From: Eledone cirrhosa
Lineage: Eukaryota
Assembly: GCA_964016885.1 (NCBI GenBank)
Contig: OZ024743.1
Coordinates: 15,438,001 to 15,502,000, forward strand
Direction of reading: 5' to 3'
DNA: 64,000 nt
Shown: one piece after another, positions 30,000 to 62,415 of the stretch
Numbering within the stretch: the stretch's first letter is position 1
Layout: each line of letters opens with the position of its first letter
The notes under the pieces: generated by a model
Databases searched by the model: none
What the model saw: only the letters and a program-made list of their open reading frames with translations
What the model was told of the DNA's origin: nothing
Made by a program: the position numbers and the translations under genes

Positions 30000-30002
30000 T
30001 TC
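29491..30002. repeat. ~510 bp interrupted (TTC)n/(GAA)n tract
   Basis: Direct reading; source of the spurious poly-R/K/L/F ORFs. Confidence 0.97.
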
Positions 30003-32390: not shown

Positions 32391-32567
32391 TTGTTTCTAC
32401 TTTTGGCACAGGTCCAGAAATTACCAGTGTATTACTGTTACTTTATTTTATCGACCCCGTAAGGATGAAAGGCAAAGTTAACCTCGGCGGGATTTGAACT
32501 CATAATGGCAAGGACCGTAACTCAATGCGTCAAAGCATGGCGTCCGACCCTCTACCGATACTGCCAA
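32391..32567 (-). mobile_element. SINE family 1 between (AAT)n tracts, next to the Tx1 3' end
   Basis: Reverse complement of the family with (AAT)n on both sides. Confidence 0.88.
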
Positions 32568-32579
32568 AATAATAATAAT

Positions 32580-38780: not shown

Positions 38781-39524
38781 TAGATATATGTATGTATATA
38801 TATACGTATATATATATATATGAGTGTGTGTTTGTTCTCCGAACTTTTGCGTCATCCCACACAGATATCTGTTGACCTCACATTAGTGCAGGTCGCTGTT
38901 GTAACGATTGCATAATAGCTCCCAATGTCACAGACATACGATAATATATATTATTATGTTAGTGCACAGGGATCCCTTTTGAAATAATAGCATAAAATGT
39001 TAGTCGAGGGATCAGTTTGTAGAATTGAGCGTCGGACAAAATGAGTAATCAAGCAATGGAATTGATTTTTTACCAACTCTTTTTTTTCTGTCTATCTGTT
39101 TCGCTTCTTTTCTTTCTTTCTCCTCTCTGTCTCTATGTGTGTATATTACTTTCACACTCTGAGATTCAGTTTTGGGGCCCAGATGATAAATGAAATGAAC
39201 CATGGGATGGGTTACATTATTTTGTAGCCATATTAATGAAACCAATAGACGTTTTACAGAAGTAAAATAAACTCTATGGAAAACATATAAATGCTGTACA
39301 CTATTTCATTAAGTAAAAATGCAATGTAAATCTCAATAGAATTTGGAAATAGAAGTCGAGGAAACTAATAAAATATCGATTTCTTACATTGTCTCCCATT
39401 TACTATGTTTCTGGTCTCGTTCCAAAATTAGTAATCATAATTATTATAATCAAGATGATTAAAGCATCTAATACAAATTGGCAGTATATATGCCAATGAT
39501 ATTGTTTTAATACTAATAATAATG

Positions 39525-40520
39525 ATGATTTCTACACAAGGCCAGCAATTTGGGAGGAGGAGAAGTCGATTAAATTGACCACAGTGAGTTACTGGGGCTT
39601 TATTTGATCGACCCCGTTAGGTTGAAAGGCAAAGCTAACCTCGGTGAGATTTGAACTCAGAACATAATGGGGCATAACTCTATGCTGCAAAGCGTGGTAT
39701 CTGACGCTCTAACGATACTGCCAATCTACCGCCATAATAATAATTGTTTCTACTTTTGGCACACGCCCAGCAATTACTCAGTACATTACTGGTACTATAT
39801 TTTATCGATCCCGTAAGGATAAAAGGCAAAGTTAACATTTGAACTCAATCCGTAAAGGGGCGTAATTCTATGCTGGAATGTATGGCGTCCGACTCTCTAC
39901 CGATACTAAATAATAATGATAATTGTTTCTACATTAGGCACAAGGCCAGAAATTTGGGGGTTGAGAAAATCGCTTAAATCGAAACTAGTGTAACTAGTGG
40001 TACTTTATTTCATCGAACTCGTAAAGGTGAAAGGCAAAGTTAAACTTGGCGGGATTTGAACTCAGAACGTAAAGAGGCATACCTCTATATTGCAAAGCAT
40101 GGCGTGTGACCCTCTACCGATACTGCCAATCCACCCCCATAATAATTGTTGCTTCTTTTGGCACAAGGCCAGCAATTATATCAGTGTATTACTGGTACTT
40201 TATTTTTCGACCCCGTAAGGATGAATGGCAAATTTAACCTCGGCGGGATTTGAACTTAGAATGGCAAGGGCCGTATCTCTATACGTCAAAGAATGGTGTC
40301 CGACCCTCCACCGATACTGCACATCCACCGACCTATAATACAAATAATAATCATTGTTTCTATTTTTGGAACAAGGTCAATAATTACCCAGTACATTGCT
40401 GGTACTTTATGTTATCGACCCCGTATGGATGAAAGGCAAAATTAACCTCGGCGGGATTTGAACTCATACGTGGTCGATAAAATAAAGTACCAGTAATGTA
40501 CTGCATAATTGCTGGCCTTA
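39525..40520 (-). mobile_element. Head-to-tail array of five SINE family 1 copies plus one inverted fragment
   Basis: Units at ~39529-39733, 39743-39908, 39921-40138, 40145-40333 and 40352-40466, separated by short (AAT)n; + strand fragment at ~40472-40519. Confidence 0.9.
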
Positions 40521-40534
40521 ATAATAATAATAAT

Positions 40535-43476
40535 CACCACTCACTTATGTGGAGTGAAGATGAAAAAACAAAGGAATTCCCACAAGAAATCTACTTGGCA
40601 AGATAACATCAATCGCCAAATAAACCTTCTCCGACCTGACATAGAAATTTTAACAAACTATAAAGTAGGTGAACATGTTAAACAAACTAAACTTAGAAAA
40701 TTGAAAAAAAAGTACAGTATAAGATCAACATGTGACATAGACATGCTGATAGAAACAATCAAGCAAAAAGTGTCGGCCAAAGCTGCTCGTATAAGGCGCT
40801 TTGAAAAACGATCTAGATTCTATAAGGACAATAATATGTTCAAAAACAACCAAAGAAACTTCTACAGAAAAATTGGTAAGTCAACAATAACTGCTAAATC
40901 AATACCACCCAAGGAGGAAGTGCAAGAATTCTGGGAAAAGATCTGGGCCGAAGAAAAAGTTCATAACATACATGCCGCATGGATAGACAGACAAATGAAA
41001 GAAACAGCTCACCTTGAAGAACAAACATGGGAAAATATAACAGTTGAACAGCTGCGCTTGGCTCTAAGAAAAACCAGCAAATGGAAATCCCCAGGAAAAG
41101 ACAAAATACAAAACTTTTGGATAAATGCCTTCACAGAGTCTCATGAGCTGTTAGCCCAACTTTACAATGAAATAGTTAAGGAGCCAGAAAAGATACCATC
41201 ATGGCTAGTTAACGGCATTACATTCCTGCTACCGAAGAATGATGAGACAAACAATCCCAAAAATTACAGACCGATAACCTGCTTGACCACAATGTATAAA
41301 ATTTTAACATCAGTCCTAACTGAATACACATATGACCACCTGATAACAAATGACCTATTTCCCATTGAGCAGAAAGGGTGTAAACGAGGCTCATATGGCT
41401 GTAAGGATCAGCTTCTGGTTAACAAAATGATACTGGAAGATTGTCATAATAGACACAAAAATCTATCGATTGCTTGGATAGATTATAAAAAAGCATTTGA
41501 TAGTTTGCCACACAGTTGGATTGAAAAATGTTTAGAGATTTTCAAAATATCCCCCGTTATCAGGAGGTTTTTGTCATTCAGTATGAGGACATGGAGAACG
41601 ACACTCTTTTGAATAGTGAAACAAAATCACTGGAAGCTGGAGAAGTTAACATTACTTGTGGAATTTTTCAGGGTGACTCTTTATCACCGCTTTTATTCTG
41701 CATCGCACTTATACCATTAAGTAAAATGCTCAATGAAACAAAACATGGATATAGAGTCTATGACAAAACCATTAATCACCTGTTCTACATGGATGACCTG
41801 AAACTATTTGCAAAAAATGATGAACAATTGCAAGGGCTATTATCCACTGTGAAGCAGTTCAGTGATGACATTAAAATGGAGTTTGGACTGGATAAATGCG
41901 CCAAAGCAACGTTCACCAGAGGAAAGCTGCTGAAGAGTTCAGACATTAATCTTGATCGGGGGAACGTGATAAGAGAGCTTGATCAAGAACAAACTTACAA
42001 ATATCTAGGTGTTTGTGAAGGAGACGGAATCAAGCACTCGACAATGAGGGAAAGGATAAGGAAGGAATGTTACCGCAGAGTCAGAGCAATCTTAAGAACG
42101 GAATTGAATGCAAGGAATTGGATCGATGCCATAAACACGCTTGCCATACCAGTAGTAACCTACAGTTACAATGTCATCAACTGGTCAAGCACAGAGATCC
42201 GTAGGCTCGATACAAAAATCCGAAAATTCTTAACCATGCACAGAATGCATCACCCTAAGGCAGACATAGATAGAATATATCTCCCTAGGAAAGAAAGAGG
42301 ACGTGGGTTAATCCAGTTAGACATTGCGTTGAAAACTGCAACAATTGGATTATCCACATATCTAAGGGAATCACATGATTGGATGATCAAACTCGTTTTG
42401 AAACACGAAAGCACCAAAAGATCATATTCCATTACAAAAGATGCACAAAGGTACAGTAATGGACTACAAATTTCAGAAGTCCCATTTACTGCTGAAATGG
42501 AAAACACAGAAAAAGCAAAGCAGGTAAAAGTAACTGCAAAGAAAGAACTGCTACAGAAACTGGCTAAGAAATGGCAAGAAAAGCCTCTGTATGGAAAATA
42601 CCCAGAGCGAGCTAACAATCCTGATGTTGACAAAACTTTAACCCATCAGTGGTTGGCATCCTCTGGACTGAAATCGGAGACTGCAGGACTGATTATATCC
42701 GCACAAGATCAGTGTCTGCCAACAAAAAATTACCAAGCCAACATAATAAAAAATGGGCGCAGCCCATTATGCCGTGTATGCAAAAAACAACCAGAGACCA
42801 TTGACCATATATTTTCAATGTGCAGTCCTATAGCTCCAACCGAATACCTAAACAGGCATGACAGAGCTACACAATACATACATTGGATAATGTGTAAGCA
42901 TTTTGACCTGCCCCATCAAAAGAATTGGTGGGAGCATCAACCACCTCCCATACTTGAAAAAGATCACATCTCAATCTTGTGGAACTTTAGCATCCAAACA
43001 GACCGAAAAATAGATGCAAATAGACCTGATATAATATTGAAGGACTTTCAAAGGAGGGTATGCCTGCTAATTGATATGTCTGTTCCAATAGACAAGAATG
43101 TATCTATAAAAACATTTGAAAAATTGAGCAAGTATAAGGACCTGGAGATAGAAATTGGAAAAATGTGGAAATTGAGAATTAAAACAATACCAGTGGTTGT
43201 AGGCGCTCTGGGAATGATACCTAAGGGGTCTAACGACTACTTATCGCAAATCCCAGGAAACCCGCGTATAGGAGAAATACAAAAGATAGTACTAATGGGA
43301 ACTGCCCATATACTAAGGAAGATCCTGTCAATATAAGTACATCACAAGTCTAAACACTAAGGATGCATGTGTGAATATGTGTGTTCTTTCTTGAACATGG
43401 CGGACCTTGTTGTCTCTTGAGGTCACTGGTTGTGACTTGGTGATAACTCGTATAAACATAAAGCAAGATAAATGCA

Positions 43477-43477
<1 letters not shown>
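40535..43477 (+). mobile_element. R4/Dong-clade non-LTR retrotransposon, family A copy 1 (5'-truncated)
   Basis: Flanked by (AAT)n on both sides; single RT-REL ORF split by one frameshift. Confidence 0.92.
40560..43336 (+). pseudogene. R4/Dong RT-REL polyprotein (frameshift near 41610)
   Basis: YRPITCL, WIDYKKAFD, GIFQGDSLS, YMDD, CRVC...ETIDHI...C zinc knuckle, RHD, RPDI...IDMSVP...K..KY..L (PD-(D/E)xK REL endonuclease). Confidence 0.9.
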
Positions 43478-43506
<29 letters not shown>

Positions 43507-43507
<1 letters not shown>

Positions 43508-46500
43508 TTTTCTTTATTAACCACAAGGGTTTACATAAAGTAGACATTAAGGACAGTACAGGATAATACAGGACGGGCATTTCTGCGTGTAAAAAAACAG
43601 AGGATGTAATAAAATAACATAGAAAAAATCCCCAATAGGGGGGAGACTTCCGAGGGACATTTGTGGAGAAAGCCCATTAGAAGACCACAGTGACCCTGAC
43701 CACCAAGGCAAGTGCCCTCTCCCAGTTTTCCACCTTTAATGTATTACAGACACATACTCAGAGTAGGCCCATTCACTCGGGCCTTTGTTGCCTCTCTCAC
43801 CCATCTTTCAACAAAATGCTGGGAAGAGAGCTCTTCCCTCTCTACCCTGATTTTCCTTTTCAAATGAAATTTGAAAAAATTAATCAGGGCATCACCAAAG
43901 AGGTAAGTGCTCGTCTTCAGCACTTTCAAAAGTGTCCATTATACTATCTCTTTGCCATGGCCACCAGAGAGATAACAACTGCCTGCCCTTCCCGGCTAAA
44001 GGCAGAGGGCGGGGCAATCCTCACGATGGACTCAGCTGATAGCTGGATCCGTCCTACACGCGACAGCAGGTTTTCGACATAAACCCACAAGTCAGCAATG
44101 CTCGGACACTGGACGAGTGCGTGCAGGACGGTTTCCTCGCCCTGCGCGCATATCGGACATGCCGGGCTGACGGCACCTCCATGCCTGTAGAGTTTATCCC
44201 GAACTGGCAAAGCTCCTCGGTAACACTGCCTGGCCAGGGATTTCTTGAAGTTGTCCATAGGCCCCGGCCCGAAAGTTCTTCCGAAGAGATTGGCTAGTTG
44301 ATTTTCGTCGACACCTATAGTTTCCCCAAGTACGTCGTCGCTCTTCCACTCCACTAATCCTCTATAGAACGCCAAGGTGGAGTTTCCACCGATCACATTG
44401 CCCGATTGGTCGAGGGCTGTAAGCGCCTGAAGACATTCCAGTCTCCGAGCGCTCCCTCTCGGTCTTCGCTTGACCCAGGATTGCAGCTCCGTCAAGGAGA
44501 CGAGCTGGGGAAAGACGCGTTTAGCAAACAGCGACCACACCTGATCACCGTCGAGGAAGAGGTGGAGATGTCGTAGCCGCCCTCATGTCTGCGCATCATC
44601 AGCCACGGCATTCCCAGCCCTCCACGTAGCGGGTGTTGACAGCAGATGGACCACCTGACCATCGGGGCGCGTCCCTTCCACAAAAAGCGAAAGAGCAAAC
44701 GCTCCAGCGCAGTCAGGCGGGGCTTAGGACAAGGTACGACGGTCAGGCGGTAGTAGATGACGGACGCGATATACGCGTTAGCAACCTCTGCTCGACCTTT
44801 CAGGGATAGCTTCCTCTCTGCCCATTTCTGGGTGAGAGAAGCCACCCTGCTCGTCACCTCGTCCCAGTTTTTGTCCGACTGGAGATCCGGACCGAACCAG
44901 ACCCCGAGCAATTTAACTGGTCCGTCCGGCCAGCGCCCGACGACGCTGTTGGACGGCATGGACCTGCCTCTCCAGGTGCCGAGCTAGAGGCCCACTGACT
45001 TTTCCTGGTTGATCATTGCTCCTGTCACCGCTTCGTATTCTCTTAGTGTAGTGCCGATCGCCTCGATGTGTTTGGCGTTCGACACCACTACGGTGACATC
45101 GTCCGCATTGCTGACACGGATCTTCCGCATCCTAGTTCGCGCGGGATCCCCCCTCAACGTTTCCAGTTTGTGCAGTAATGGCTCGAGAGTCAATACGTAC
45201 ACGTACAAGATGGACGAGAGGGGACATCCTTGGCGGACCGAGCGCATGATGTTGAACGGTTCCGAAAGGTGACCGTTCACTCTCACCACAGAGCAGCTGT
45301 GCATGGCAGCGATCCAGCCTCTGAAGACGGGCCCAAAGCCAGCCGCCCTCAGGACTGCCGCTAGGTAACGGTGGTCGACGCTATCGAAAGCTTTCGACTG
45401 ATCTAAATTGATCAAGGACCCACCCGTGCCAGGTTCCTTAGATACCCTCTTTACGATGTATCGCATGAGGTGTAGGTTGTCGTGGATGCATCTGTAGGGT
45501 ATGGCGCATGTCTGCGCCTCTCCCACCAGACCACCAACGACAAGCGCCAACCTCTTTGCTAGCACCTTGGCCAAAATCTTGAACTCTGTGTTTAGCAGAG
45601 TTATGGGCCTAAAATTATCTATGTTATCCCCCTTGTTCGGATCCTTTCTCAGCAGCGCCACAGCCTCGGCGCACATAGCTGGGAATTTTCCGGTTCTGTT
45701 GCCAGTTGCAGTAGACGACCGCCAAGAGGCCCCCGAACAAGTCTGGCATCTGTACGTAAAGTTCATAGGGCAGACCATCCAAACCACGCGATTTACCCCT
45801 TGTGCAGGTAGTCATTGCCTCCCGTACTTCAGCGGCTGTTATCGGCTTTGCGCAACACTCCACCTCAGTGGCCGAGAGCCGAGGCAGTCCGTCGAGGTAG
45901 ACACTAAAGCCCATCCCTTTATCCGGCCCGCCGCTGCCCCCGAACAACTGAGCGAAGTGTCGCTGAAAAGCTTTACACATTTGCCCGGGATCGAGCTACA
46001 TGCGCCTGTCGTGGTCCACCAAAGAGCGGATCGTGGTTTTGTTGCCACGATGCGCCTCCGCCACGCGGGCCCATTGAAAGGCTTTCGTCCCCTCGTGTCT
46101 GAGAGCACGCACTCTAGCTCTGACAACGCAGCCTTCGTGCTTTGCATAGAAGAATTAGTCAAGGGCCAATTTCGCCGCCAACACGTCGGTCGCGATGCCT
46201 TTGCTAAGCGCCTCGTCTAATTTTCTAACTAATTCTCCCTCTGCTCTATTTTTTCTCTATTGCTAAAGCCTTACTAAACCTAATGGACTCCTATTCTAAT
46301 TGCGCTTTTCAGAGCAAACCACCACTTGTTGGTGACGATGGACCCCGTCAAAGCCCGTTTAACTAGTTCGCTAATCCGGTCTCTGTAGGCCTTGCGCGCT
46401 GGTAAGGACGCGTTTAGCTTCCAGGAGCCGGGACCTCGTGTATGAAGCCTATGTAAGTCAAGTACACAGGTCACGAATTTGTGGTCCGTGTAGCTGACTA

Positions 46501-49223
46501 TCTTGAATTGTGGACAGCCTATGCTAGACCTATCTATTTCTCTACAAAATACTCTATCTAGATATGATCTGGATGACCCTATGAGATTTGTCGAAGTCCA
46601 CATTGGCACATTCGGGAAATCCAATCGCTAAATGTCAGACAGTTCAAAACGCCTGAGCAGGATGCTAAGGCTCTTGCCCTATCCGCTAATCCCACACAGT
46701 CCCAGCGTGCATCTAAGATCCCGTTCCAGTCGTCCACTAACACTAAAGTGCGGGACGTTCCAAGAAAGGTCTCCAGACGCCGGAAGAAATCAGGCCGCCC
46801 TGCTCCTGTCGGGGCATAGACGGCCACTAGCCTGAAAGCTTGCCCGTCTCCGCTGGTAACGTCTAGCACCATCAACTTACCTTCTGGGTCCAGGAAGATG
46901 GCCCGTATGGCGAGATCCAAACCTCTCCGAAAAAGCACAGCAACTCCTTCCCCCGATCCCGGACGGCTGGGAGATGCGTACACATTGTAGCCGCCGAAGA
47001 TCGGACAAAGGCCCGTTCTTCGGAGATTCTGGTCTCGCTGATGGCCACTCATCTATGTTTAGTGATCTGAGGTCGTTGAGCAGGTGGCCCTGCTTCCATG
47101 ACGAACCCAAGCCACGCGCATTTATGCTAGCTATTCTGAGTGAGGTCATGTTGAAATGGAGTAGAAAAGATGGGAAAGACCACTTACCTTACTTCTCGTA
47201 GAGGAAAGATGGTTTGTCCATCCTTTTCACTGCTTGTGGCCTCCTCCGGAAGGATGTCCTTATAAATCCTCCTGGAGAGTGTTTGTCGGAAGTCTCCTAT
47301 GTCTTTAGGGAATTTTTGTTTTAGTGTCATGTACGTTTTCTGTGTGATGGGAGTGATTTGTATGTGTGGAGGCGGTGTGAACTTTTGGGTTCTTGTGTAG
47401 TCTTTTTCTGTGATACTGGTGTTGCATGTAGTGTAATAATTGGTTGTTGTTCAAATTTAATGCTGTGTAGTGTGTATCGTTTTGGTTGTTTTGTTTTGTT
47501 TGCGTTTGTTGTGGGTTTGTTTCTGTTACGCTTTTTGGTGACTTTTGTGGTGTTGGTGATGGTGGTGTTGGGGTTAGTGATGGTGATGGTGTTTGTGGTG
47601 ATGGGGTTGGTGATGCTGGTGTGGATGGTGGCATATCTGTCTTAACTTTCTTGTTGGATAATTTATTTGTTTCCCTCTGTATTTTGTTTTTTGACGGGGA
47701 AGGAAGAAATTTTTTTCTTTTTTGGTTTCTTTTTCTTTTTCTTTTTTCCTGATACCGTTTCCCACTCCTCGTCGTCACAATCTGTCTCCAGTTTCGATAA
47801 GCCGGGGAGTGGAAAATCTTCCACGGGCGTTGTTACAGTTGCTTCTGTTGTTGCTGCTACAGTTGTTGCTGCTATTTCTGCTGCTGGTGGTGTTGATGGT
47901 TGGGTCACTGGGGCCGGTGAGAGAGGTGGCCTCAACCTTTTAGCCTGAGGGCAGAAAGCCCTTAGGTGGGTTCATTCACCACAAACGACACACCTAGGTC
48001 TTCTGCCCTCGACGATACGGTGAGGTGGCTGCCGTCAGTGAGGTCTATTACCTCTGGGATCTCCTCAATGCTTTTATGGTCCGTTTGGATCAGGAGCTCC
48101 ATCCCAGATCCGGACCAGTTCTCCTGCTTTTCTTTTCCTATTTCTATTATTTTGGTGTTGGCCTCGATGCCGGCGAGGACGGCAGCCATTAGCCAGGGAA
48201 TTTCGATGGCCGGTGGAACGTGGGTCACCCTGATCTTCACAAGTCTCTGGCCACAATAGCTTGGGATGAGTGTGAAGTTGTCACTTCTTAATGGGGCCAT
48301 GGAGTGTTCTCTAGCCTCCTGTGGTGTTTCAAAGAACACGTCCACGGTTCCATACTTCTGTCCACGTCTGATGTGCGTTTTTTTTGCCCACACATGTCCC
48401 AAAGCTTTTTGGATTTGGGACTCAGATGCCCGTTCTACTCGGCGCGATTTTATGTTTATTGTCCGATAAGACACGGTGCATAGGCGACGTTGCTCCATGT
48501 TATTAGGTGGGGGGCTGACACTGTACCCATCTTTCTTTACCATTCATCTAATTCTTCCTGAGTTACCTGGATCGCTTCGCACGTTTTTGCTACTCTGGCA
48601 AAATTCAGGGTAGTTTTCTTAATTTCATTGTTGCTGTTATTATCGTTATTTTTGCTATCGTTAATTTTAGTTTCAGTTGTGGTGGTGGTGGCGTCAGTTG
48701 TGTTCGGTGTGGAAGAGTTCATTTTGGTTGAATTCATTTCGATATCATGAGTTAATTTATTTTTTTCTTTTGTTTCTGTTGTCGCTGTGGTGGTGGTGGG
48801 GTGGTGGTTGTCGCGGTGATGGTGGTGGTGGCGGCTTTAACACCTGCAGTCATTGGTAATGGCTGGAAATGAACGTCTGCCTGAGACAAATTTAAAATAT
48901 TGCTACTGTTTACAATTCCAGTGTTGGCAAACGTAGCAATGTTTACAATGGTGGTTTCGGTGTGAGGTGTTGGATTATGAGAAAGGAGTGAATCTGAGTT
49001 ATCCATTATTTTTCATAGAAAACATTTTTTGTTTGATAATTATAAAAAGTTTAAATTTTGGGCTCAAGGCTCCAATATTTTTGAGTGTCCTTTTCAGAAA
49101 TCAATGTATGTGCACTTATATATATTTAACAGGAAAAACTTTCACTAAATGGCAATTTTAAATAACTGAAAATAACAAACCTTTGCGGAGCTCACGATGA
49201 TACGATTTACTACGTAGGTCGCC
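43507..49223 (-). mobile_element. Tx1-clade LINE copy 2, full length (~5.7 kb), frameshifted
   Basis: 5' end GGCGACCTACGTAG next to (TTA)n; ORF1 ~49006-47260; ORF2 ~47150-43750 with SINARGL, SYLDRV, YTDHK, RPITLLN, LDQSKAFD, RQGCPLS and C-terminal CPICAQGEETVLHALVQC; 3' end CCCTTGTGGTTAATAAAGAAAAC(ATT)n. Confidence 0.92.
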
Positions 49224-49265
<42 letters not shown>

Positions 49266-49266
<1 letters not shown>

Positions 49267-49906
49267 CTTTCTTTATTAACCACAAGGGTTTACATTAAGT
49301 AGACATTAAGGAGAGTACAGGGCAATACAGGACGGTACAAATGGGCATTTCTTCGTGTAAAAAAACAGAGGATGTAATAAAAATAACAATGAAAAATTCC
49401 CCAATAGGGAGGAGACTTCGGAGGGACATTTGTGGAGAAAGACCATTAAAAGGCCACAGTGACCCTAACCACCAGGGCAAATGCCCTCTCCCAGTTTTCC
49501 ACCTTTAATTTATAGACACATACTCAGAGTATTCTTGCTTCTCTTACCCATATTTCAACAAAATGCTGGGAAGAGAGCACTTCCCTCTCCATTCTGATTT
49601 TCCTTTTCAAATGAAATTTGAAAAAGTCAATCAGGGCATTACCGAATAGGTAAGTGCTCATCTTCAGCACTTTCAAACGTGTCCACCATACTATCTCTTT
49701 CGCCATGGCCACCAGACAGATAAAAACAGCCTGCCCCTCCCGGCTAAAGGAAGAGGGCGGGGCAATCCTCACGATGGACTCAGCTGATAGCCGGATCCGT
49801 CCTACACGCGACAGCAGGTGTTCGACATAAACCCACAAGTCAGCAATTCTTGGACACTGGACGAGTGCGTGCAAGGCGGTTTCGTCGCCCTGCGCGCATA
49901 TCGGAC

Positions 49907-49908
<2 letters not shown>
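49266..49908 (-). mobile_element. Tx1 copy 3, 5'-truncated 3' fragment
   Basis: Similar to 43507-44160; (AAT)n on both sides. Confidence 0.9.

Positions 49909-49987
<79 letters not shown>
49909..49987. repeat. (AAT)n microsatellite, about 26 units, between Tx1 copy 3 and Dong A copy 2
   Basis: Direct reading. Confidence 0.95.
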
Positions 49988-49988
49988 G

Positions 49989-52778
49989 TAAACTTAGAAA
50001 ATTGAAAAAAAAGTACAGTATAAGATCAACATGTGACATAGACATGCTGATAGAAACAATCAAGCAAAAAGTGTCGGCCAAAGCTGCTCGTATAAGGCGC
50101 TTTGAAAAACGATCTAGATTCTATAAGGACAATAATATGTTCAAAAACAACCAAAGAAACTTCTACAGAAAAATTGGTAAGTCAACAATAACTGCTAAAT
50201 CAATACCACCCAAGGAGGAAGTGCAAGAATTCTGGGAAAAGATCTGGGCCGAAGAAAAAGTTCATAACATACATGCCGCATGGATAGACAGACAAATGAA
50301 AGAAACAGCTCACCTTGAAGAACAAACATGGGAAAATATAACAGTTGAACAGCTGCGCTTGGCTCTAAGAAAAACCAGCAAATGGAAATCCCCAGGAAAA
50401 GACAAAATACAAAACTTTTGGATAAATGCCTTCACAGAGTCTCATGAGCTGTTAGCCCAACTTTACAATGAAATAGTTAAGGAGCCAGAAAAGATACCAT
50501 CATGGCTAGTTAACGGCATTACATTCCTGCTACCGAAGAATGATGAGACAAACAATCCCAAAAATTACAGACCGATAACCTGCTTGACCACAATGTATAA
50601 AATTTTAACATCAGTCCTAACTGAATACACATATGACCACCTGATAACAAATGACCTATTTCCCATTGAGCAGAAAGGGTGTAAACGAGGCTCATATGGC
50701 TGTAAGGATCAGCTTCTGGTTAACAAAATGATACTGGAAGATTGTCATAATAGACACAAAAATCTATCGATTGCTTGGATAGATTATAAAAAAGCATTTG
50801 ATAGTTTGCCACACAGTTGGATTGAAAAATGTTTAGAGATTTTCAAAATATCCCCCGTTGTCAGGAGGTTTTTGTCATTCAGTATGAGGACATGGAGAAC
50901 GACACTCTTTTGAATAGTGAAACAAAATCACTGGAAGCTGGAGAAGTTAACATTACTTGTGGAATTTTTCAGGGTGACTCTTTATCACCGCTTTTATTCT
51001 GCATCGCACTTATACCATTAAGTAAAATGCTCAATGAAACAAAACATGGATATAGAGTCTATGACAAAACCATTAATCACCTGTTCTACATGGATGACCT
51101 GAAACTATTTGCAAAAAATGATGAACAATTGCAAGGGCTATTATCCACTGTGAAGCAGTTCAGTGATGACATTAAAATGGAGTTTGGACTGGATAAATGC
51201 GCCAAAGCAACGTTCACCAGAGGAAAGCTGCTGAAGAGTTCAGACATTAATCTTGATCGGGGGAACGTGATAAGAGAGCTTGATCAAGAACAAACTTACA
51301 AATATCTAGGTGTTTGTGAAGGAGACGGAATCAAGCACTCGACAATGAGGGAAAGGATAAGGAAGGAATGTTACCGCAGAGTCAGAGCAATCTTAAGAAC
51401 GGAATTGAATGCAAGGAATAGGATCGATGCCATAAACACGCTTGCCATACCAGTAGTAACCTACAGTTACAATGTCATCAACTGGTCAAGCACAGAGATC
51501 CGTAGGCTCGATACAAAAATCCGAAAATTCTTAACCATGCACAGAATGCATCACCCTAAGGCAGACATAGATAGAATATATCTCCCTAGGAAAGAAAGAG
51601 GACGTGGGTTAATCCAGTTAGACATTGCGTTGAAAACTGCAACAATTGGATTATCCACATATCTAAGGGAATCACATGATTGGATGATCAAACTCGTTTT
51701 GAAACACGAAAGCACCAAAAGATCATATTCCATTACAAAAGATGCACAAAGATACAGTAATGGACTACAAATTTCAGAAGTCCCATTTACTACTGAAATG
51801 GAAAACACAGAAAAAGCAAAGCAGGTAAAAGTAACTGCAAAGAAAGAACTGCTACAGAAACTGGCTAAGAAATGGCAAGAAAAGCCTCTGTATGGAAAAT
51901 ACCCAGAGCGAGCTAACAATCCTGATGTTGACAAAACTTTAACCCATCAGTGGTTGGCATCCTCTGGACTGAAATCGGAGATTGAAGGACTGATTATATC
52001 CGCACAAGATCAGTGTCTGCCAACAAAAAATTACCAAGCTAACATAATAAAAAATGGGTGCAGCCCATTATGCCGTGTATGCAAAAAACAACCAGAGACC
52101 ATTGACCATATAATTTCAATGTGCAGTCCTATAGCTCCAACCGAATACCTAAACAGGCATGACAGAGCTGCAAAATACATACATTGGATAATGTGTAAGC
52201 ATTTTGACCTGCCCCATCAAAAGAATTGGTGGGAGCATCAACCACCTCCCATACTTGAAAAAGATCACATCTCAATCTTGTGGAACTTTAGCATCCAAAC
52301 AGACCGAAAAATAGATGCAAATAGACCTGATATAATATTGAAGGACTTTCAAAGGAGGGTATGCCTGCTAATTGATATGTCTGTTCCAATAGACAAGAAT
52401 GTATCTATAAAAACATTTGAAAAATTGAGCAAGTATAAAGACCTGGAGATAGAAATTGGAAAAATGTGGAAATTGAGAACTAAAACAATACCAGTGGTTG
52501 TAGGCGCTCTGGGAATGATACCTAAGGGGTCTAACGACTACTTATCGCAAATCCCAGGAAACCCGCGTATAGGAGAAATACAAAAGATAGTACTAATGGG
52601 AACTGCCCATATACTAAGGAAGATCCTGTCAATATAAGTACATCACAAGTCTAAACACTAAGGATGCATGTGTGAATATGTATGTTCTTTCTTGAACATG
52701 GCGGACCTTGTTGTCTCTTGAGGTCACTGGTTGTGACTTGGTGATAACTCGTATAAACATAAAGCAAGATAAATGCAA
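49989..52778 (+). mobile_element. R4/Dong family A copy 2 (5'-truncated), nearly identical to copy 1
   Basis: ORFs 50002-50913 and 50829-52637 differ from copy 1 at only a few residues; same frameshift; (AAT)n tail. Confidence 0.92.
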
Positions 52779-54136
52779 ATAATAATAATAATAATAATAA
52801 TAACAAAGAAAAATTCCCCAATAATAATAATAAGGGAAGAAGACGCACATGGTGGATTGAAGGTTGTGAAATCGCTCCCGTAAGTTTTGATTTTTAACAT
52901 ATTTAAATCAATTGTGAAATAACAATTCTTAATACCAATGATACATAAAGCATCCGGCTTAAGTCTCCGGAAAAATTCGGATCCATAATATATAGTTATA
53001 TCGCTCAAATATTCAATTTTGTATTATACATTTTATATTCAAAACAGAAAATGGTTATATATGGAAGAAAACCCCCTCTGTCTACACTATATAGAACGGC
53101 CAAATAACAGCAATTTCACCAACACCAGAAACTAGATATTCCACTTACCACATCACCCCTCTGTGTACACTAAATACAACAGCCAATTTCACCACCACCA
53201 CCACCAATCTCAGCATAATGATAATAATTAATATCATTATTGTCTCAAGTTTTAACAAAATGTATAAATCCAATATTAAGAAAATATGTCAACACATATA
53301 CGCGACTAACGCCATAGATTCACCGATCAAAAAAAATTACAGTCTATTCAACAAAACTCAGTAACGACAACGCCATCACTAGAGTCACCGTCACCGCCGC
53401 CGCCCACCCATCATTACTACCACTATCCCATCACCGCCGCCACCACTCCTTCATTGCTACCACCGCTATCCCCCATTACCTTCTGTTAATTTACGAAAGG
53501 GGAAGGTAGCGGTATCACTAGACAATATTAATAAACAAGATTAATATTTAATTTTGGAACAGGAATGTTAGAGCCGAAAAGTAGAAAAATGACAAAATGA
53601 CTAAATAACTAAAGATAATTTCACCACCACCACCACTACCACGATGAAAACACTGGTCAAGTCGACTCAACCGCTATTTCTACTCCAACTTCAACACCAT
53701 AACTACAGTACTACGATCACATCATCACCACCACTGCCTCATTATCGCTACCGCCGCTATTCTCTCCCACTACCTCCTGCTAGTTGCTGCTAGCACAGCA
53801 CTGCCACTGCCTAATTATCACTACCGCCGCTATTCTTTCCCGCTACCCCCTACTATATTGTAGTGCCCCCACTAAAAGAGGAAGGCATCAAAATATATAA
53901 ATAAACTGAATTGATGACCCGGTCAAAATCAAAAAAACAAAAATCAAAATCAAAGCAGCACAGCAACAACGAAAAACGTAAAGGAAATAAAAATGGACGG
54001 ACAGAGAAGGGAAGGGAAAAACTAAATCAGACATTCAAACATTACATTACAATGAAACTTATGCTTATTCATTTTTGGGGTTTTTTTCTGCCTGTTTGTT
54101 TGTTTGTTTATTTGGGTTCGTCTACAGCGTAATAAT

Positions 54137-57100
54137 GCCACACAAAACCACGTGGAGTGACGAAACTACCGGAGACGAGTAATTCACCGGTGGTTATGTA
54201 ACCATACATTCGCCAATCCTCGATAAGAGTGTTTAAATGTCGAATCTAAACAGTTCGAATAACGGTGAAATGGAGACTAGAATGTCATGTGACAGACTCT
54301 CACCCAACAGGTGCTCCCTGGCTCAGCAGCAGGGACCTGGCTGTCAACCAAATACTGCTGGTATCGGAGGAAGAAGAAGAAGGAAAGGGACCAGAACCAA
54401 CTGGACGAAAGAATTGAATAGAACTGTTATACAATGTTACCTGAAGAGTAACCCCAAGGAGAAAGGCTATAGGAAAAGAATGCATAACATCTGGAACGAT
54501 ATTGGTCCATTTAAATTAGATGAACAAAAACTGGCCGGGCAGGCTCGGGTAATAAGAACTAATGGGGGGATAAGTGAGCTGGAACTGGAGGAACTGAGCA
54601 GAGAGATTAGGTTGGAGATGGAGAGTGGAGTATGCCAGGCAAACGAGCCAGTGGGAAATGAAGGCGAAGAGGTCGAGAGAACGGAGGAACCACCCGAAGC
54701 AGACAATGATCTGAATGCTGAGATAAATAATACCTGGAACAGAGATACGGCCACTGAGGAGATGAATGCTGACGGGCTAGGACAAGATTTGGTTGATATC
54801 CTAAACTTAGTGGTAGATGAATTGAACAATGATAGTGGGAGACCTATGAACCTAAGATTTGTAGACAGGAAAAAGTTAAAAGAAACAACAGCTAAGGTAA
54901 AGAAAGTCATCCCATACCTTGAGGCGAGGAGCCTTCACCAGTGCAACAATATCCTCAAAGCAACAGCAAATACGGTGAGGAAACTACTTGGTATAAAAGC
55001 GAGAGCAAACAGCATAAACAAGAAAGAGCAGAGCCTTGGTGGAAGAAACTACTGAGTGGTCAAATCAGGGAAATGAGAAATGACATTGGAAAGCTTGAGT
55101 CCCTACTGAATGGGACACTAAAAAACATAGACACTAAAAATAGACTGGAAATAAAGTACAAAACTAGGAGGAAAAAGCTAAATATTATCATAGAGGAACT
55201 GAAGCAACGCATTGTAGCAAAGAGTACAAAAATCAGGCGATACGAGAACAGAGTCAGTCAGTATAGACAGAACCGCATGTTCGACAACAACCAGAAGATG
55301 CTGTTTGGACAGCTTGAAGGGAACGAAAGAGGCAACGACTTGATCACTGAGGCGGAACAAACTAAAACATTCTGGAGAGGAATATGGGAGCAGGATGTTA
55401 AACATAATGACCAGGCAGTGTGGATTGAGACAGTACAGAAGGAGATCAGTGAACAGGCACACCAACAAACTGATTTGAGTATCACAGTTGAAACTCTTAA
55501 GGGGCAGGCCAAAAAACTAACCAACTGGAAGTCACCTGGCCCAGATGGTGTGCAGGAGTATTGGATTTAAAACATAACATCCCTCCACCCGAAACTGACA
55601 ACCATGTTCAATGACTGCTTGATGTCAGGTGAGGTACCAGAGTGGTTGACAAAAGGTACCACAGTTCTGATAATGAAAGACCGAATCAAGGGTAATGATG
55701 TTACCAATTATAGACCTATCACATGTCTGTCCGTAATGTGGAAACTGTTGACAAGCATTGTGTCTGAGGAAATCTACCATCACCTCCACACAAACAACTT
55801 GTTACCGGACGAACAGAAAGGATGCCGAAAGAAGTCACGTGGTACAAAGGACCAGTTACTTATTGATAAGATGGTAATGAGGAATTGCAAGAGGAGACAC
55901 ACTGGTCTTGCCATGGGATGGATAGACTACAAAAAGGTATTTGACATGGTGCCTCATTCTTGGATCACCAAAAGCCTGGAGATCTTCAAGGTGGCTGATA
56001 ACATCAGACAGTTGTTGGGCAAAAGTATAAAGTCCTGGGAAACAGAGTTAACATCAACTGGAGAATCCTTGGGAAGCGTGAAGATCAAGAGAGGTATCTT
56101 CCAGGGAGATAGTCTGTCCCCTCTGTTGTTTGTCCTTGCCCTGATGCCCCTGACCAGTGTACTGGGAAAAGTGAGAGCAGGATACAGGTTGGGAATGGGA
56201 GGGCTTACCATCAATCACCTCCTCTTCATGGACGATCTTAAGCTCTTCGGGAAGAGTGAGAAGGAGTTGGATGTGCTTGTTGACACTGCCCGTATTTTCA
56301 GCAATGATATATGTATGCAATTTGGTATTAGTAAGTGTGGAATCATTGTGATGAGGAGGGGTAAGTTGAGCAGAAGTAACGGAATCCAGATACCAAAAGG
56401 TGAGATGATAAAGGAAATTGACTCTGAGGAAGGATACAAGTATTTGAGCGTTCTGGAGGCTGATGACATCAAGAACAAAAAAATGAAGGAATTGATAAGA
56501 ACTGAATACATTACGAGAGTAAGGAGCGTATTAAAGTCACATCTGAACAGTAGGAATGTCATAAGTGCAGTAAATTCCCGGGCTGTGTCTATTATTAGGT
56601 ACAGTGCGGGAATTCTGAGATGGAATGTTGCTGAACAAAAAGAAATGGATAGGAAGACAAGGAAGCTATTGACTATCTACAATATGTTCCACAAGAGGAG
56701 TGATGTCGATAGACTCTACTTAAGGAGATATGAAGGTGGAAGAGGTCTTATCAGCATAGAGGACTGTGTTCAGATGGAGAAAAACAACCTACACAAATAC
56801 GTGACTGATAGTAAGGAGCCAATGCTCAGAACTGTACTGAAGGAGGGGACAATAGGCCAGGGGATGTCCAAGGAGGAAATAACATCAAGGAGAAAGAGCA
56901 GCCTTCTGGAAAAATCCCTTCATAGTACCTTCTTTGAGAAAACTGAATTTAGAGATCCACAGACATGGAACTGGTTGAAAAGAGAAGGACATAAAAAGGG
57001 TACAGAAGGAATGTTAATGGCTGCGCAGGAGCAGGCCCTCAAAACGAAGTGGTTGAAACACCACATTTACACGGAGGAGGCTAGCCCACTGTGCAGGATC

Positions 57101-57740
57101 TGTGGAGAGAGAGAGGAGACTGTTGCTCACATTGTATCCGAGTGTAAACACCTAGCCCAGACTCACTATAAGGGCTGGAGACATGATGTGATGGGCAGGG
57201 TGATCCACTGCCACCTATGCAAAGTAAACAATTTACCACATTCTGAGAAGTGGTATGAGCATAAGCCAGAGGTGGTGATAGAAAACGATCAGGTGAAGGT
57301 GCTGTGGGATTTTAGGATACAGACGGACAAGAAACTGGAACACAATAGACCTGACCTGGTGGTTTTGGACAAAGAAAAAAGATCGTGCCTGATTGTAGAT
57401 GTGGCCTGCCCATTCGACACGAGAGTGCAAGAGAAGGAGAGGGAGAAAATTAACCGATACCAGGACTTAAAGTGGGAGGTAAAAAGGATTTGGAACTGCC
57501 ATGAAGTCAAAGTGATCCCGATTGTCATAGGCGCACTAGGGACTATCTCAAAAAGTTTCCAGGGATGGTTAAATAAAATTGGCCCCGCCACGATTTTTGG
57601 AACGCTTCAAAAGGCATGCTTGCTGGAAACAGCAAGAACCTTCCGATACGTCCTGAATATCTGATGCTGCAGGTAGTGGCTTGATATTCATTTCAACAAA
57701 CTTTCCAGTTAACTAACATCAATGACTGAGATTCAAAGAG
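54137..57740 (+). mobile_element. R4/Dong family B, apparently full length (~3.6 kb)
   Basis: Starts after TAATAAT; ORF 54237-57664 with one frameshift (~55030) and one stop (55568). N-terminal WTKELNRTVIQCY...YRKRMHNIW domain, YRPITCL, GIFQGDSLS, FMDD, CRIC...ETVAHI..C, RHD, RPDL...DVACP..EKINRY; (AAT)n tail. Confidence 0.92.
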
Positions 57741-57768
57741 TAATAACAATAATAATAATAATAATAGT

Positions 57769-58046
57769 AATTGTTTCTACTGTTGGCACAAGGCCAGCAA
57801 TTATATCAGTGTATTACTGGTTTCTACAATAGACACAAGGCCAGAAATTATCCCAGTGTATTACTCGTACGTTATTTTATCGACCACATTAGGATGAAAT
57901 GCAAAGTTAACCTCGACGGGATTTGAACTCAGAATATTAATACTAATAATTGTTTCTACTTTAGGCACAAGGCCAGCAATTACCAGTGCATTACTGGTAC
58001 TTTATTTTATCGACCCCGTAAGGATGAAAGGCAAAGTCAACCTCAA
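57769..58046 (-). mobile_element. Three stacked SINE family 1 3' fragments in the Dong B tail
   Basis: Three TTTCTAC...CACAAGGCCAG units starting at ~57770, 57820 and 57950. Confidence 0.85.
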
Positions 58047-58064
58047 TACTAATAACAATAATAA

Positions 58065-58496
58065 TTTAGGATACAGACGGACAAGAAATTAGAACACAAC
58101 AGACCTGACCTAGTGGTTTTTAACAAGGAAAAAAAATCGTGCATGATTGTAGATGGAACCTGACCCTTTGACACGAGAGTTCAAGAGAAGGAGAGGGAGA
58201 AAATTAACCGATACTAGGATTTAAAATGTGACTTAAAAAGGATTTGGAACTGCCATGAGATCAAGGTCGTCCCGATTGTCATAGGAACTCTAAGTAATAT
58301 CTCAAGGATGTTTCAAGGATGGTTAAAGAAGATTAGTCCAGCCCCGTTTTTTTGGAACACTTAAAAAGGCATGGTTGCTGGGAACATCAAGAACCCTCCG
58401 ATACGTCCTAAATATCTGAGGCTGCAGGTAGCGGCTTGATAATCATTTCAACAAACTTTCCAGTTAAATAACATCAATGACTGAGACACAAAGAAC
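58065..58496 (+). mobile_element. R4/Dong family B 3' fragment
   Basis: Diverged copy of 57311-57740 (TTTAGGATACAGACGGACAAG...ACATCAATGACTGAGA). Confidence 0.88.
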
Positions 58497-58502
58497 AATA
58501 AT

Positions 58503-61500
58503 GGTTTCTTTATTGGCCACAAGGGCTAACTCGAAGAAAAACATTAGAGACAGCACAGAACAGTACAGGACGATACAAAGTGGGTTTTGGTCGTGTAAAC
58601 AGGTTATAACAAAATTGGTCTAGAATTCAAAATAATTCAAATAACAAAAATTGCCCAAAAAGGTGGAAACCTCCGAGGGTCACTCGTGGCGAAAACCACA
58701 CAAAAAGGCCACGGCTGCCCTGACGACCAGGGCTAGAACCCTCTCTCAGTTTTCCCACTCCTCAGTCTACAAGCACATACTCAGAGCGAGGCTGTTCACT
58801 CGGACCAGACTCGCCACTTTCACCCACCTTTCAACAAACTTACTAGAAGACAGCACTTGCCTCTCCACCCTGACTTTCCTCTTCAAGTGAAACTTGAAAA
58901 AATTAATCAGGGATTGGCCGCAGAGGAAAATGTCCGTCTTCAACCCTTTCAGCCTTGTGCACCACACAATCTCTTTTGCCATGGCCACCTGGCAGATGAA
59001 AACTGTCTGCCCTTCCTCCTCTTTAGAGGGACTACCTGCACAACTGACTTAGTCGATAACTGGATCCGTCCTACACACGACAGCAGCTGTTCGACATAGC
59101 TCCACAAGTCAGCAATCCTCGGGCACTGAATGAGTGCGTGCACAACGGTTTCGTCACCCTGCACGCATCTCGAACAGGCTCGGCTGACAGCACCTCCTTG
59201 CCTGTAGAGCTTATCCCGAACCGGCAACGCTCCCCGGTAGCACTGCCAGGCCAGGGATTTCTGGAAGTTGTCCATAGGCCCCGGTCTGAAAGTTCTCTTG
59301 AAGAGAGCGAACAGCTGATCGTCTTCGACGCCCAGGGTCTCTCCGAGAACGTCGTCCCACTTTCCATCCACTAGCCCTCTATAGAACGCAAAGGTGGATG
59401 TTTCACCGATACTAGTGCCCAACTGGTAGAGCGCTTGGAGACATGCAAGCTTCCAAGCGCTGTCCCTCGGTATTTTCCTGATCATGGACTGCAGCTCCGT
59501 CAAGGAGACGAGCCGGGGAAAAGCGGGTCTGGCAAACGGCGACCACACTTGTTCACCGTCAAGGAAGCACCAGAGATGTCGCAGCCTGAGCGCATGTTTG
59601 CGCATCATGAGCCACGGCAAGCCTAGTCCTCCACGCAACGGGTGTTGACAGCAAATGGATCGTCTGACCATGGGAGCACGTCCCTTCCACAAAAAGCGGA
59701 AGAGAAGGCGCTCCATTTTGGTCAAAGTTGGGCAGCGCACGGTACGACGGTCAGGCGGTAGCAGATGACGGACGCTATGTACGCATTCGCCACCTCCTCC
59801 CGAACTTTCAGAGACAGCCTCTCTTCGGCCCATTTCTGGGTGATAGAGGCTACCCTGCTCGTCTCCTTGCTCCAGTTTTTCTCCATCTGTCGGTCCGGAG
59901 TGAACCAGACCCTGAGCAATTTAACCGGTCCTTCCGTCCAGTGACTCACGACGCTGTCGGATGGCATTTCAGGTGCCGAGTTGCAAGCCCACCAACTTTT
60001 CCTGGTTTATCTTTGCTCCTGTCACCGCTTCGTATTCCTTGAGAGCGGTACCGAGCATCTGGACATGTTTGGTGCTCGACACCACCACGCTTAGGTCGTC
60101 GGTGTATGTTGACACGGATCTCCCGCAACCCAGTTCGCGTAGGACCTCCCTCATCGTCTCCAATTTGTGCAGTAACGGCTCGATGGCTAGTACGTACAAC
60201 AGGGACGAGAGGGGAACACCTGGCGGACCGAGCGCATGAGGCTGAAAGGCTGCGACAGGTGACCATCCACCCTCACAATCGAGCAGATGTCGCTGTGCAT
60301 CGCAGCGATCCAGCCCATTAATACGGACCCGAAGCTGGCCGCCTCGATGACCGCAGCCAGGTGCCGATGGTTAACCATATCAAATGCTTTAGATTGATCC
60401 AATTTGATCAGGCCCCACCTCTGCCAGGTTCCTTATCCACTCTCTCTATGATGTATCGCATGAGATGGAGGTTGTCATAGATGGATCTGTCCGGAATTGC
60501 GCATATCTGCGCCTCTCCCACGAGATCACCGACGACAAGCGCCAATCTCTTTGCTAACAACTTGGCCAAAATCTTAAACTCTGTGATTAGCAGAGTTATG
60601 GGCCTGAAGTGGTCTATAACGTGCCCCTTGTCCGGATATTTTCTCAGCAGCGCCACCGCTCCCCGGCTCATAAAACTGGGAATGCTCCCGTTCTGCTGCC
60701 AATTGCAGTAGACATCTGCCAAAAGGTCGCCGAACAAGTGTGGCATATATGCATAAAGCTCGTAGAGCAGACCAGCCAAACCTGGCGATTTACCCCTCGT
60801 ACAGTCAGACAACGCTTCCCGTATTTCACCTGATCATCGGCTTTTCGCAACACTGCCCTCCGGTCGTCGAGGGCCGCGGCAGTCCATCGAGGTATGCACC
60901 GAAGTCCATACTCCGACCCGGCCTGCCGCCGCTCCCAAACAATTGAGCAAAGTGCTGTTGAAAAGCCGCACACATCTGCTCGTGTTCGAGCAACATGTGC
61001 CCGTTTTGATCAGGCAAAGACCGAATTGTGGCGTGTTGCCACATCGCCCCTCCACCACCCGGGCCCATTGAATGGCTTTCGTCCCCTCGTGTCTTAGAGC
61101 ACACGCTCTAGATCTCACAACGCGGCCTTCATGCATTGCGTTGAAGAATTGGTTGAGTGCCAATCTCGCCGCATGCACGTCGGTTGCGATGCCTGTCCTA
61201 AACGCCTCTTCTAGCTATCTAACTAACTCTCCCTCTACTCTATTTTCCTCTATCACTACTCCTTTGCTAAACCTTATCGATTCTACACTAATAACCCTTT
61301 TCAGGCTAAACCACCACCTGTTGTTGACGATCGCACCCGTCAACGGACGCTTAACTAATTTGCTAATCCGGTCTTTGTAAGCTTTGCGCGCCGAGAACGA
61401 CTCGTTCAGCTTCCAGTAGCCGGACCTTTGCCTATGGAGTCCATCTAAGTCAACTTCACAGATCACAAATTTGTGGTCCGTGTAGTCGACTACTTTAAAT

Positions 61501-62358
61501 TGTGGACAGCCTACACTAGCCTTATCTGTTTCCCTACAGAATACCCTATCTAAATACTATCTGGATGACCCTTTAACAGTATTAGTTATAGAGTAGTCGC
61601 CACTTTAGCAGGGTGGTAGAATCAGTGGTCGTTACTTTAACAGGGTAGATGATTGAAGGTCGTTAGTTGCCAGTGTGGTAAGTGATAGTATCCTCGTTGG
61701 ATTATCTTGTTGACATAGACGTGAGGGAAGGTCCCTCGATCTATTTACCATCTATTTACAATATTCCTTTCATCAGGTCGCCCATTCCAGCAGCATGGAT
61801 TATAGATGTTATTGAGACACGAGTAACATAACAATGATTTCAACAGCAGTAATTAGAGATGAAATGTATGTTTATTTATATGGTTGAAGTTACAGATAAA
61901 AAGAGGTTACAAAAGGGAATGTGCCATTTCGCCGTTAAGCCGGCGAGGCTCGGGGTGCAATATCTCACTGTTACATTATGCGTGTTGCTGGCTCGAAGTT
62001 TCTGGTACAAGAGAGAGATTCTTCAAATCTTCGCGGGGAATTTCTTCCTCAGGGCGCGTAGAGATACATCCTCTTCTACTGGCGCTGATTGTCTGAACTG
62101 AGCCAAATCACGCACAGAGAATGTATGTGAGCCCGCGGAATGTAGGTCACTACAACCCGATGCGGTTTGCCCATGTCCACATTGGCACATTCGGATAATC
62201 CAGTCTATACATGTCAGACAGTTCAAAACGTCTGAGCAAGTTGTTGGGGCTTTTACAACCTCCTGCCCTCTCTACTAGCCCCACATAATCACATCGTACA
62301 TCTAAGATAACGTTCCAGTCGCTCACTAACACTAAAGAGCGGGACGTTCCAAGAAAGG
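58503..62358 (-). mobile_element. Tx1 copy 4 (distinct subfamily), 5'-truncated within the APE domain, interrupted by a solo LTR
   Basis: FLGTSRSLVLVSDWN, GYWKLN, RPITLL, DQSKAFD, YTDD, CSRCVQGDETVVHALIQC; 3' end GCCCTTGTGGCCAATAAAGAAACC(ATT)n. Confidence 0.88.
61572..62154 (-). mobile_element. Gypsy-like solo LTR (583 bp) with 4-bp TSD
   Basis: Interrupts collinear Tx1 APE sequence; TSD ACCC at 61568-61571 and 62155-62158; minus strand begins TGTAGTGACC, contains AATAAA (~61870) and ends CTGTTAAA (degenerate ...TTACA). Confidence 0.7.
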
Positions 62359-62384
62359 ATACGTCTGACTGATATTCAAAGAAC

Positions 62385-62415
<31 letters not shown>

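Follow-up and report, generated by a model that had tools for sequence, protein, structure and literature searches.

Dong elements of the R4 clade, known from Bombyx, Anopheles (DongAg), and a snail (DongBg), insert into TAA repeats, as does Rex6 (PMC3812793, PMC1635306; here and below, statements rest on excerpts of the cited papers). Among Tx1 elements, Kibi targets (TC)n, Koshi targets (TTC)n, and crocodilian representatives lie at (TTCC)n or (TTTC)n; a family has been considered target specific when more than 20% of its copies are flanked by the target (PMC4494074). Dong-R4 and L1-Tx1 elements have both been recently active in Octopus vulgaris, for which hotspots of transposable elements (TEs) have been reported (PMC13282606). 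In this study, we have analyzed a single stretch of 64,000 nucleotides from Eledone cirrhosa (assembly GCA_964016885.1, contig OZ024743.1, positions 15,438,001 to 15,502,000; referred to as the window, with coordinates counted from its first base), in which Dong/R4-like long interspersed nuclear elements (LINEs) on the plus strand and Tx1-like LINEs on the minus strand share (AAT)n tracts. We consider it probable that both lineages have repeatedly retrotransposed into (AAT)n, priming on complementary strands, at three neighboring tracts. It is likely, then, that a Tx1-like element, probably with a short interspersed nuclear element (SINE) as a passenger, homes to a repeat that has so far been described only as a Dong target.

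Each component of this arrangement has precedent; what is likely to be new is the target of the Tx1-like family and its likely SINE passenger. Like Dong and Rex6, the plus-strand elements are LINEs in TAA repeats with a single open reading frame (ORF) encoding a reverse transcriptase (RT), a CCHC motif, and a restriction-like endonuclease (REL) (PMC3812793, PMC1635306), but the window holds two families (38% amino acid identity over 582 amino acids) on tracts that are also used by an element with an apurinic/apyrimidinic-like endonuclease (APE). Like Kibi, Koshi, and the crocodilian Tx1 elements, the minus-strand element is a two-ORF APE LINE with one microsatellite on both sides (PMC4494074), whereas its unit is ATT, its host is a mollusc, and the nearest Kibi-like locus that we found is only 28 to 36% identical in ORF2. 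Parallel specificity of an APE and an REL element for one target is known from Keno (Tx1) and Utopia, respectively, at U2 snRNA genes (PMC4640811). Those two elements have identical 3' flanks and run in the same direction in the gene, whereas the window shows a microsatellite approached from opposite strands. TRAS1 and SART1 are both APE elements of the R1 clade. In Bombyx, these two LINE families occupy one simple repeat, (TTAGG)n, in opposite directions, and both endonuclease specificity and RNA-target annealing have been discussed for them (PMC7265360); their repeat is telomeric, whereas the window pairs one APE and one REL element on interstitial tracts. Finally, mobilization of the crocodilian SINEU by Tx1-Mar was inferred from common targets, often in tandem (PMC4494074), whereas the SINE in the window is of the tRNA type and is linked to Tx1 by a common 3' end and an ATT tail. 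Our literature search returned no (ATT)n-targeting Tx1 and no SINE-Tx1 link in octopus, although Repbase, Kojima and Fujiwara (2004), and supplements fell outside it and may list the family; the excerpts of PMC8967140, PMC9115989, PMC4758252, PMC3747384, and PMC5678591 contained no target data for octopus Tx1.

The pile-up consists of three neighboring sites, at 32377-37483, 39515-52831, and 54131-62414 (26,743 bases together), with gaps of 2.0 and 1.3 kb between them. Their layout was derived from tblastn searches with intact relatives and from displays of self-matches, tandem repeats, and junctions; tracts were counted in perfect AAT units. Site 1 begins with (AAT)5 (32377-32391, junction display) and continues with a SINE on the minus strand, (AAT)4 (32568-32579), a minus-strand Tx1-like element with an intact 5' end, and (AAT)5 (37469-37483, junction analysis). 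Site 2 opens with five minus-strand SINEs and an inverted SINE piece, followed by (AAT)5, a plus-strand Dong element of family A, (AAT)10 (43477-43506), a full-length minus-strand Tx1-like element, (AAT)14 (49224-49265), a Tx1-like 3' piece in the same orientation, (AAT)26 (49909-49988), the second plus-strand Dong A copy, (AAT)8, a tentative 18-nt Tx1 piece, and (AAT)4; the tracts of 10, 14, and 26 units were defined by both tandem-repeat and junction displays. In site 3, a plus-strand Dong B element, a tract, two minus-strand SINE pieces, a further tract, a plus-strand Dong B piece, and (AAT)2 precede a minus-strand Tx1 B element that carries a solo-long terminal repeat (LTR)-like insert, and the site ends with a Dong B tail piece and a tract. 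These calls account for 21,290 of the 22,891 bases of 39525-62415, the span described in an earlier interpretation made from the letters alone (the sequence-only reading). That reading passed over site 1, the solo-LTR-like insert, the 18-nt Tx1 piece (52802-52819), and the division of the Dong-like copies into two families.

An AAT tract of at least 2 units is present at 20 of the 25 junctions. Within 39525-62415, where the sequence-only reading had seen such tracts at nearly every junction, the proportion is 17 of 22, with 5 of these 17 tracts having just 2 units and the other 5 junctions having none. Tracts at the sites exceed chance expectation: on the plus strand, the sites contain 17 AAT and no ATT tracts of at least 3 units, compared with 4 AAT and 3 ATT tracts in the remaining 37.3 kb. 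The background outside the sites (74,514 strand-positions) is 0.96% for at least 2 units, 0.044% for at least 3, 0.008% (6 positions) for at least 4, and zero for at least 5.

Orientation follows the strand of the repeat. The Dong-like copies start at 40535, 49989, 54137, 58066, and 62359, and all five lie on the plus strand and end in AAT units; the four Tx1-like copies all lie on the minus strand, each ending in ATT units on its own strand. When the Dong A pair is counted as one event, the four Dong events and four Tx1 copies all obey this rule (P = 0.008), as do eight of the nine SINE pieces, which are on the minus strand (P = 0.02). The orientations given in the sequence-only reading were therefore correct for all three groups, with the second Dong B copy now starting at 58066 and the tail piece at 62359 (26 nt); the tail-to-tail joins that it described (43477-43506, between Dong A and Tx1; 57741-57771, between Dong B and a SINE; and 58497-58502) and the head-to-head join at 49909-49988 are likewise present.

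Since a 3' tail alone creates a tract at the 3' end of an insertion, only the 5' flanks count as evidence of the target. Three of the four Tx1 5' flanks bear a tract, at 37469 (5 units bordering unique DNA), 49224 (14 units, which also form the tail of the neighboring copy), and 49909 (26 units), as do four of the five Dong 5' flanks, at 40520 (5 units), 49909 (26 units), 54131 (2 units), and 58045 (a degenerate run that includes 3 perfect units); the tentative 18-nt Tx1 piece would contribute a further 5' tract at 52820 (4 units). The neighbors of the tracts at 37469, 40520, 49909, 52820, 54131, and 58045 are exclusively 5' ends, unique DNA, or the truncated end of a SINE; lacking contact with a canonical 3' tail, these six are targets, not tails. 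In addition, the two full-length Tx1 copies, which are approximately 80% alike, begin at the identical base immediately after (ATT)n.

Neighboring copies also differ widely in age, indicating that insertion was repeated: the Tx1 copies are 71 to 88% alike, whereas the Dong A pair is 99.5% identical. The stretch 38901-49250 was compared with two restriction site-associated DNA sequencing (RAD-seq) runs and two contig sets (simple-repeat tracts skipped, best-supported rows only). Against contigs of one set, X1, the Tx1 copy at 43507 had 133 other letters in 2,568 (the sum of six pieces listed), compared with 42 in 2,875 for Dong A. It is on the architecture of the elements, their orientation, the 5' tracts, and these layered ages, all of which are observed directly, that our interpretation is founded. 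The proposal of the sequence-only reading that APE and REL elements converged on one target is thus borne out as far as common tracts, opposite orientations, and 5' tracts go, but the Dong A copies cannot be counted as independent; copies of very different ages do lie next to one another, but its ever-growing locus resolves into three separate sites rather than one.

The plus-strand elements have the R4/Dong architecture, a single ORF in which an RT is followed by a CCHC knuckle and a PD..D/ExK REL, with no APE, and their insertion in TAA repeats, as seen in this one window, is the R4/Dong target feature. Their ORFs match Pfam RVT_1, and both families contain CRIC..H..C, RHD, RPD..D, and KY motifs, which we take to be the CCHC and REL motifs; the closest solved structures in the PDB are R2 proteins. 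A WTKE..N motif, presumably typical of R4, is present, whereas Pfam gave no match to the N-terminal Myb-like domain, free of zinc fingers, that characterizes the clade. Family A copy 1 (40535-43476), identified by RVT_1 and the CCHC and REL motifs, is 5' truncated, with a frameshift near 41.6 kb and (AAT)5 (40520-40534) on its 5' side. Copy 2 (49989-52777, junction display and tblastn) has a 5' end 153 nt shorter and is followed by (AAT)8 (52778-52801). The near-full-length family B copy (54137-57740) is a decayed single ORF between (AAT)2 (54131-54136) and a degenerate tract (57741-57771), and an intact relative of 1,158 amino acids aligns across 54399-57661 by tblastn. A Dong B 3' piece (58066-58496) is 86% identical to this long copy and shares (AAT)2 (58497-58502) with a Tx1 tail, and the 26-nt tail piece at 62359 leads into an imperfect (AAT)10 (62385-62414), the right edge of site 3. 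Dong A (40535-43464) is also approximately 98.5% identical to contigs of run X1, which is labeled as another organism, as would be expected of a young family common to both species, and an X1 contig continues 1,165 nt farther 5' than copy 1.

The minus-strand elements have the architecture of the Tx1 clade, with two ORFs, the second comprising an APE, an RT, and a C-terminal zinc finger. Pfam matches in ORF2 cover the RT and zf-RVT, the APE motifs are scattered over frames, and the relatives carry PF03372, PF00078, and PF13966. The RT is nearer to that of human L1 than to R2, and its best named relatives are from Argonauta hians (64%) and Sepia pharaonis. The full-length copy (43507-49223) encodes an ORF1 with a CCHC-like knuckle and an APE-RT-zf-RVT ORF2, with several frameshifts, whereas the copy of site 1 (32580-37468; tblastn of intact relatives; 80.5% identical to the 43507 copy) retains its 5' end but is decayed, with internal deletions. 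The 3' piece at 49266-49908 is 88% identical to the 43507 copy. Subfamily B (58503-62358, tblastn of intact relatives) is 5' truncated and 71 to 77% identical to the other copies. In all four copies, AATAAA lies 6 nt ahead of the tail, and poly(A) was not seen in these DNA copies. An 18-nt 3' untranslated region piece on the minus strand, followed by (AAT)4 (52802-52831, the tract at 52820-52831), is tentatively assigned to Tx1 (21 of 22 letters, including flanking tract letters; E = 0.002). The spacer between sites 2 and 3 (52832-54130) was considered as a decayed Tx1 element, an assignment that we rejected, since tblastx and blastn found no LINE or SINE homology there.

The Dong and Tx1 labels fit the architectures and targets, although the names rest on architecture rather than on a phylogeny that includes named references; neither the Atlas nor cluster look-ups returned clade-level names for either element or a named Dong, R4, HERO, or Tx1 sequence. 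Metagenome contigs yielded five distant relatives (26 to 36%), the best of which, L001 (positions 1-5678 of its contig), is an intact two-ORF LINE (446 and 1,314 amino acids) with (TC)n at both ends, 28 to 36% identical in ORF2 to intact relatives of the Tx1 element in the window. This Kibi-like locus fits the Tx1 placement but does not prove it. Assignment of the window element to Kibi or Koshi themselves was rejected, as its flanks are (ATT)n, not (TC)n or (TTC)n. A long TTC tract does occur at 29493-30002, but its neighbor is an RTE-like piece and not a Tx1 copy. No relative of the elements was found among viral contigs, and no longer homologue of the Tx1 ORF1 piece was found among 560 candidates.

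In target-primed reverse transcription, the DNA strand that serves as primer runs on into the antisense strand of the element. It is this geometry that implies priming on complementary strands: cDNA of Tx1, and of the SINE, would start at a nick in the AAT strand, and Dong cDNA would start at a nick in the ATT strand. RNA is cleaved some 10 to 30 nt downstream of a poly(A) signal; with AATAAA 6 nt before the tract, cleavage of Tx1 RNA would therefore fall within the tract and leave an (AUU)n terminus. Such an end could pair with the nicked AAT strand only and may in this way set the orientation, and would do so also with an APE that nicks either strand, both of which carry TpA steps. We favor pairing combined with a TpA-nicking APE over a strand preference of the enzyme, although both would give the same picture. 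Each insertion probably has tracts at its two ends once it is complete, which would supply occupied sites with new targets. A tolerant, gene-poor neighborhood probably contributes as well; the three separate sites and the two inserts that lie away from tracts also point to such a region.

The proposed passenger is a tRNA-type SINE of approximately 180 bp, represented in site 1 by a minus-strand copy (32392-32567) with an ATT tail and what we take to be a B-box-like motif. Five minus-strand copies lie head to tail at 39515-40466 with AAT units between them, two of a longer subtype and one 5' truncated; an inverted piece that lacks its 3' end (40467-40519, plus strand), with a tract-free left junction, is the sole exception in orientation. 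In site 3, two truncated minus-strand SINEs (57772-58044), one with a 47-nt internal duplication, have the degenerate tract at 58045-58065 on their 5' side. Rfam gave only subthreshold matches; dinucleotide repeats accounted for nearly all of these, and the SINEs for none. The array copies are on average 79% identical to one another and 85% identical to the dispersed copies, which are 90% identical among themselves; this lower identity within the array indicates that it is old and led us to reject tandem duplication as its origin.

The last 25 nt of the SINEs (five queries, three of them identical) were compared with LINE ends, with 2,000 shuffles. For all five queries, only 0 to 2 of the 2,000 shuffles reached the score obtained with the Tx1 B end, whereas Dong ends, in either orientation, did no better than shuffles (691 to 1,987 of 2,000), and Dong was rejected as the partner. 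Among 12,228 non-SINE tiles of sequence, the Tx1 B end ranked second as a match to the SINE end, behind a probable decayed SINE 3' end at 39411; the latter (39405-39450, plus strand) lies 70 bp to the left of site 2, opposite in orientation to the array. Given this resemblance and the same orientation, it is likely that Tx1 mobilizes the SINE, for which the 3'-end match is suggestive but not proof.

Several observations weigh against targeted insertion by both lineages. The evidence is from a single window. Five of the 25 junctions are tract free (40466, 57820, 61572, 62154, and 62358), including that at which the Dong tail piece meets the 5' end of Tx1 B. With respect to the SINE link, the match to subfamily A Tx1 ends was weaker (0 to 617 of 2,000 shuffles, and more than 50 for the three identical, commonest ends), and folding of the Tx1 and SINE ends gave no 3' stem-loop above shuffles (z of about 0). 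The six dispersed SINEs examined lie at short TTA motifs rather than at tracts, two of them (6569 and 28999) with clear 11- to 14-bp duplications beginning at TTA, which suggests that the shared machinery may need just a few bases, and an old Tx1-like piece (19955-20158, plus strand) has no tract nearby. L1 comparably needs TT/AAAA. It could therefore be argued that Tx1 and the SINE need only a short TTA or AAT motif, that most of the tracts represent tails of these elements lengthened by slippage, that Dong alone is a TAA-tract specialist, and that the region is a tolerant sink, as would fit three sites within 30 kb, the solo-LTR-like insert and the SINE inside Tx1 bodies, and the ORFs of 1-29.4 kb, in which no host gene was conspicuous by eye. 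This account, however, leaves unexplained the Tx1 5' end next to (ATT)5 and unique DNA (37469) and that at the head-to-head (ATT)26 (49909), since neither tract can be a tail, and the complete lack of Tx1 copies at tracts in the Dong orientation; we regard it as unlikely.

Two further explanations concern how the cluster was built rather than what the elements prefer, and the remaining adverse observations bear on these. The Dong A copies have the same frameshift and differ at 14 positions in 2,789 nt, of which 1 falls in the first 1,430 nt and 13 in the rest (Kolmogorov-Smirnov P = 0.001), and, among the best 40 of 2,250 rows, they have in common 18 of the 23 letters that depart from the majority of family reads (the set leaves out 41259, where the other letter is a minority, and two sites beyond the shared span). 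The clustering in the 3' half suggests a possible role of conversion or local copying, and the shared letters mean that the pair is not independent evidence; these letters mark the two as sister copies, derived from one minor source or by local conversion. That part of the cluster, chiefly this pair, grew at the DNA level through duplication, gene conversion, or template switching between AAT tracts is nevertheless very unlikely as an account of the locus: all other copies are 71 to 88% alike, and a single minor source element that inserted twice explains the shared letters equally well. The pair also has different 5' junctions, with an older Tx1 element between the copies; this excludes an origin as a simple tandem duplication that Tx1 subsequently divided. 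For these two copies alone, we put conversion or local copying at somewhat short of an even chance. Misassembly, in which unlinked repeat copies were joined at microsatellites, would fit the coincidence of joins with simple repeats, and no listed contig spans an element-to-element junction in 38901-49250, where the comparison skipped tracts. Many tracts, however, separate diverged copies and are themselves degenerate or short (2 to 5 units), the window contains no N, and an X4 contig, possibly the assembly's own source, runs from unique DNA into the first SINE (38901-39594, 4 other letters). Chance joining would in any case require 5' ends that already bear tracts, which would leave the targeting signal intact, and we consider misassembly extremely improbable.

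Repeated targeted insertion by both lineages is thus the interpretation that we prefer, and it can be extended, as a possibility that we hold with some reserve, to an undescribed octopod Tx1 lineage that homes to (ATT)n, mobilizes a major tRNA SINE, and has converged with Dong on the opposite strand, with mutual seeding of targets building multikilobase stacks genome-wide. If the pattern is genome-wide, (ATT)n would be a new entry among Tx1 targets, a likely mobilizing partner would be named for an octopod SINE, and some TE hotspots in octopod genomes would have a sequence-level cause; SINEs make up approximately 12% of the O. vulgaris genome (PMC13282606). A natural APE/REL pair on one repeat in opposite orientations also allows endonuclease strand choice to be tested against RNA-primer pairing as the source of polarity. 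The principles drawn from Keno/Utopia and TRAS/SART stay unchanged.

Other insertions and repeats are present in the window. Within Tx1 B, and away from tracts, lies a 582-bp solo-LTR-like insert (61573-62154, minus strand) with a 4-bp duplication (ACCC) and no internal region, its LTR identity being suggested by its ends. A SINE piece inserted in the Tx1 copy of site 1 (35457-35521) adjoins, in the ORF1 region (35457-35577), five tandem copies of the target-site 12-mer, perhaps through slippage during insertion. Between 29493 and 31400, a minus-strand LINE piece, which we take to be RTE-like from its motifs (Pfam gave no match there), ends in a 510-bp (GAA)n tail that reads as (TTC)170 on the plus strand; a 71% identical relative lies at 12266-12907. 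A hAT-type DNA transposon spans approximately 13860-17280, with a frameshifted transposase containing DUF4371 and the hAT dimerization domain. Local duplications occur beside (TA)n tracts at 20368-21109 and 24336-25257 (322 bp at 92.5% identity), with near-identical frames.

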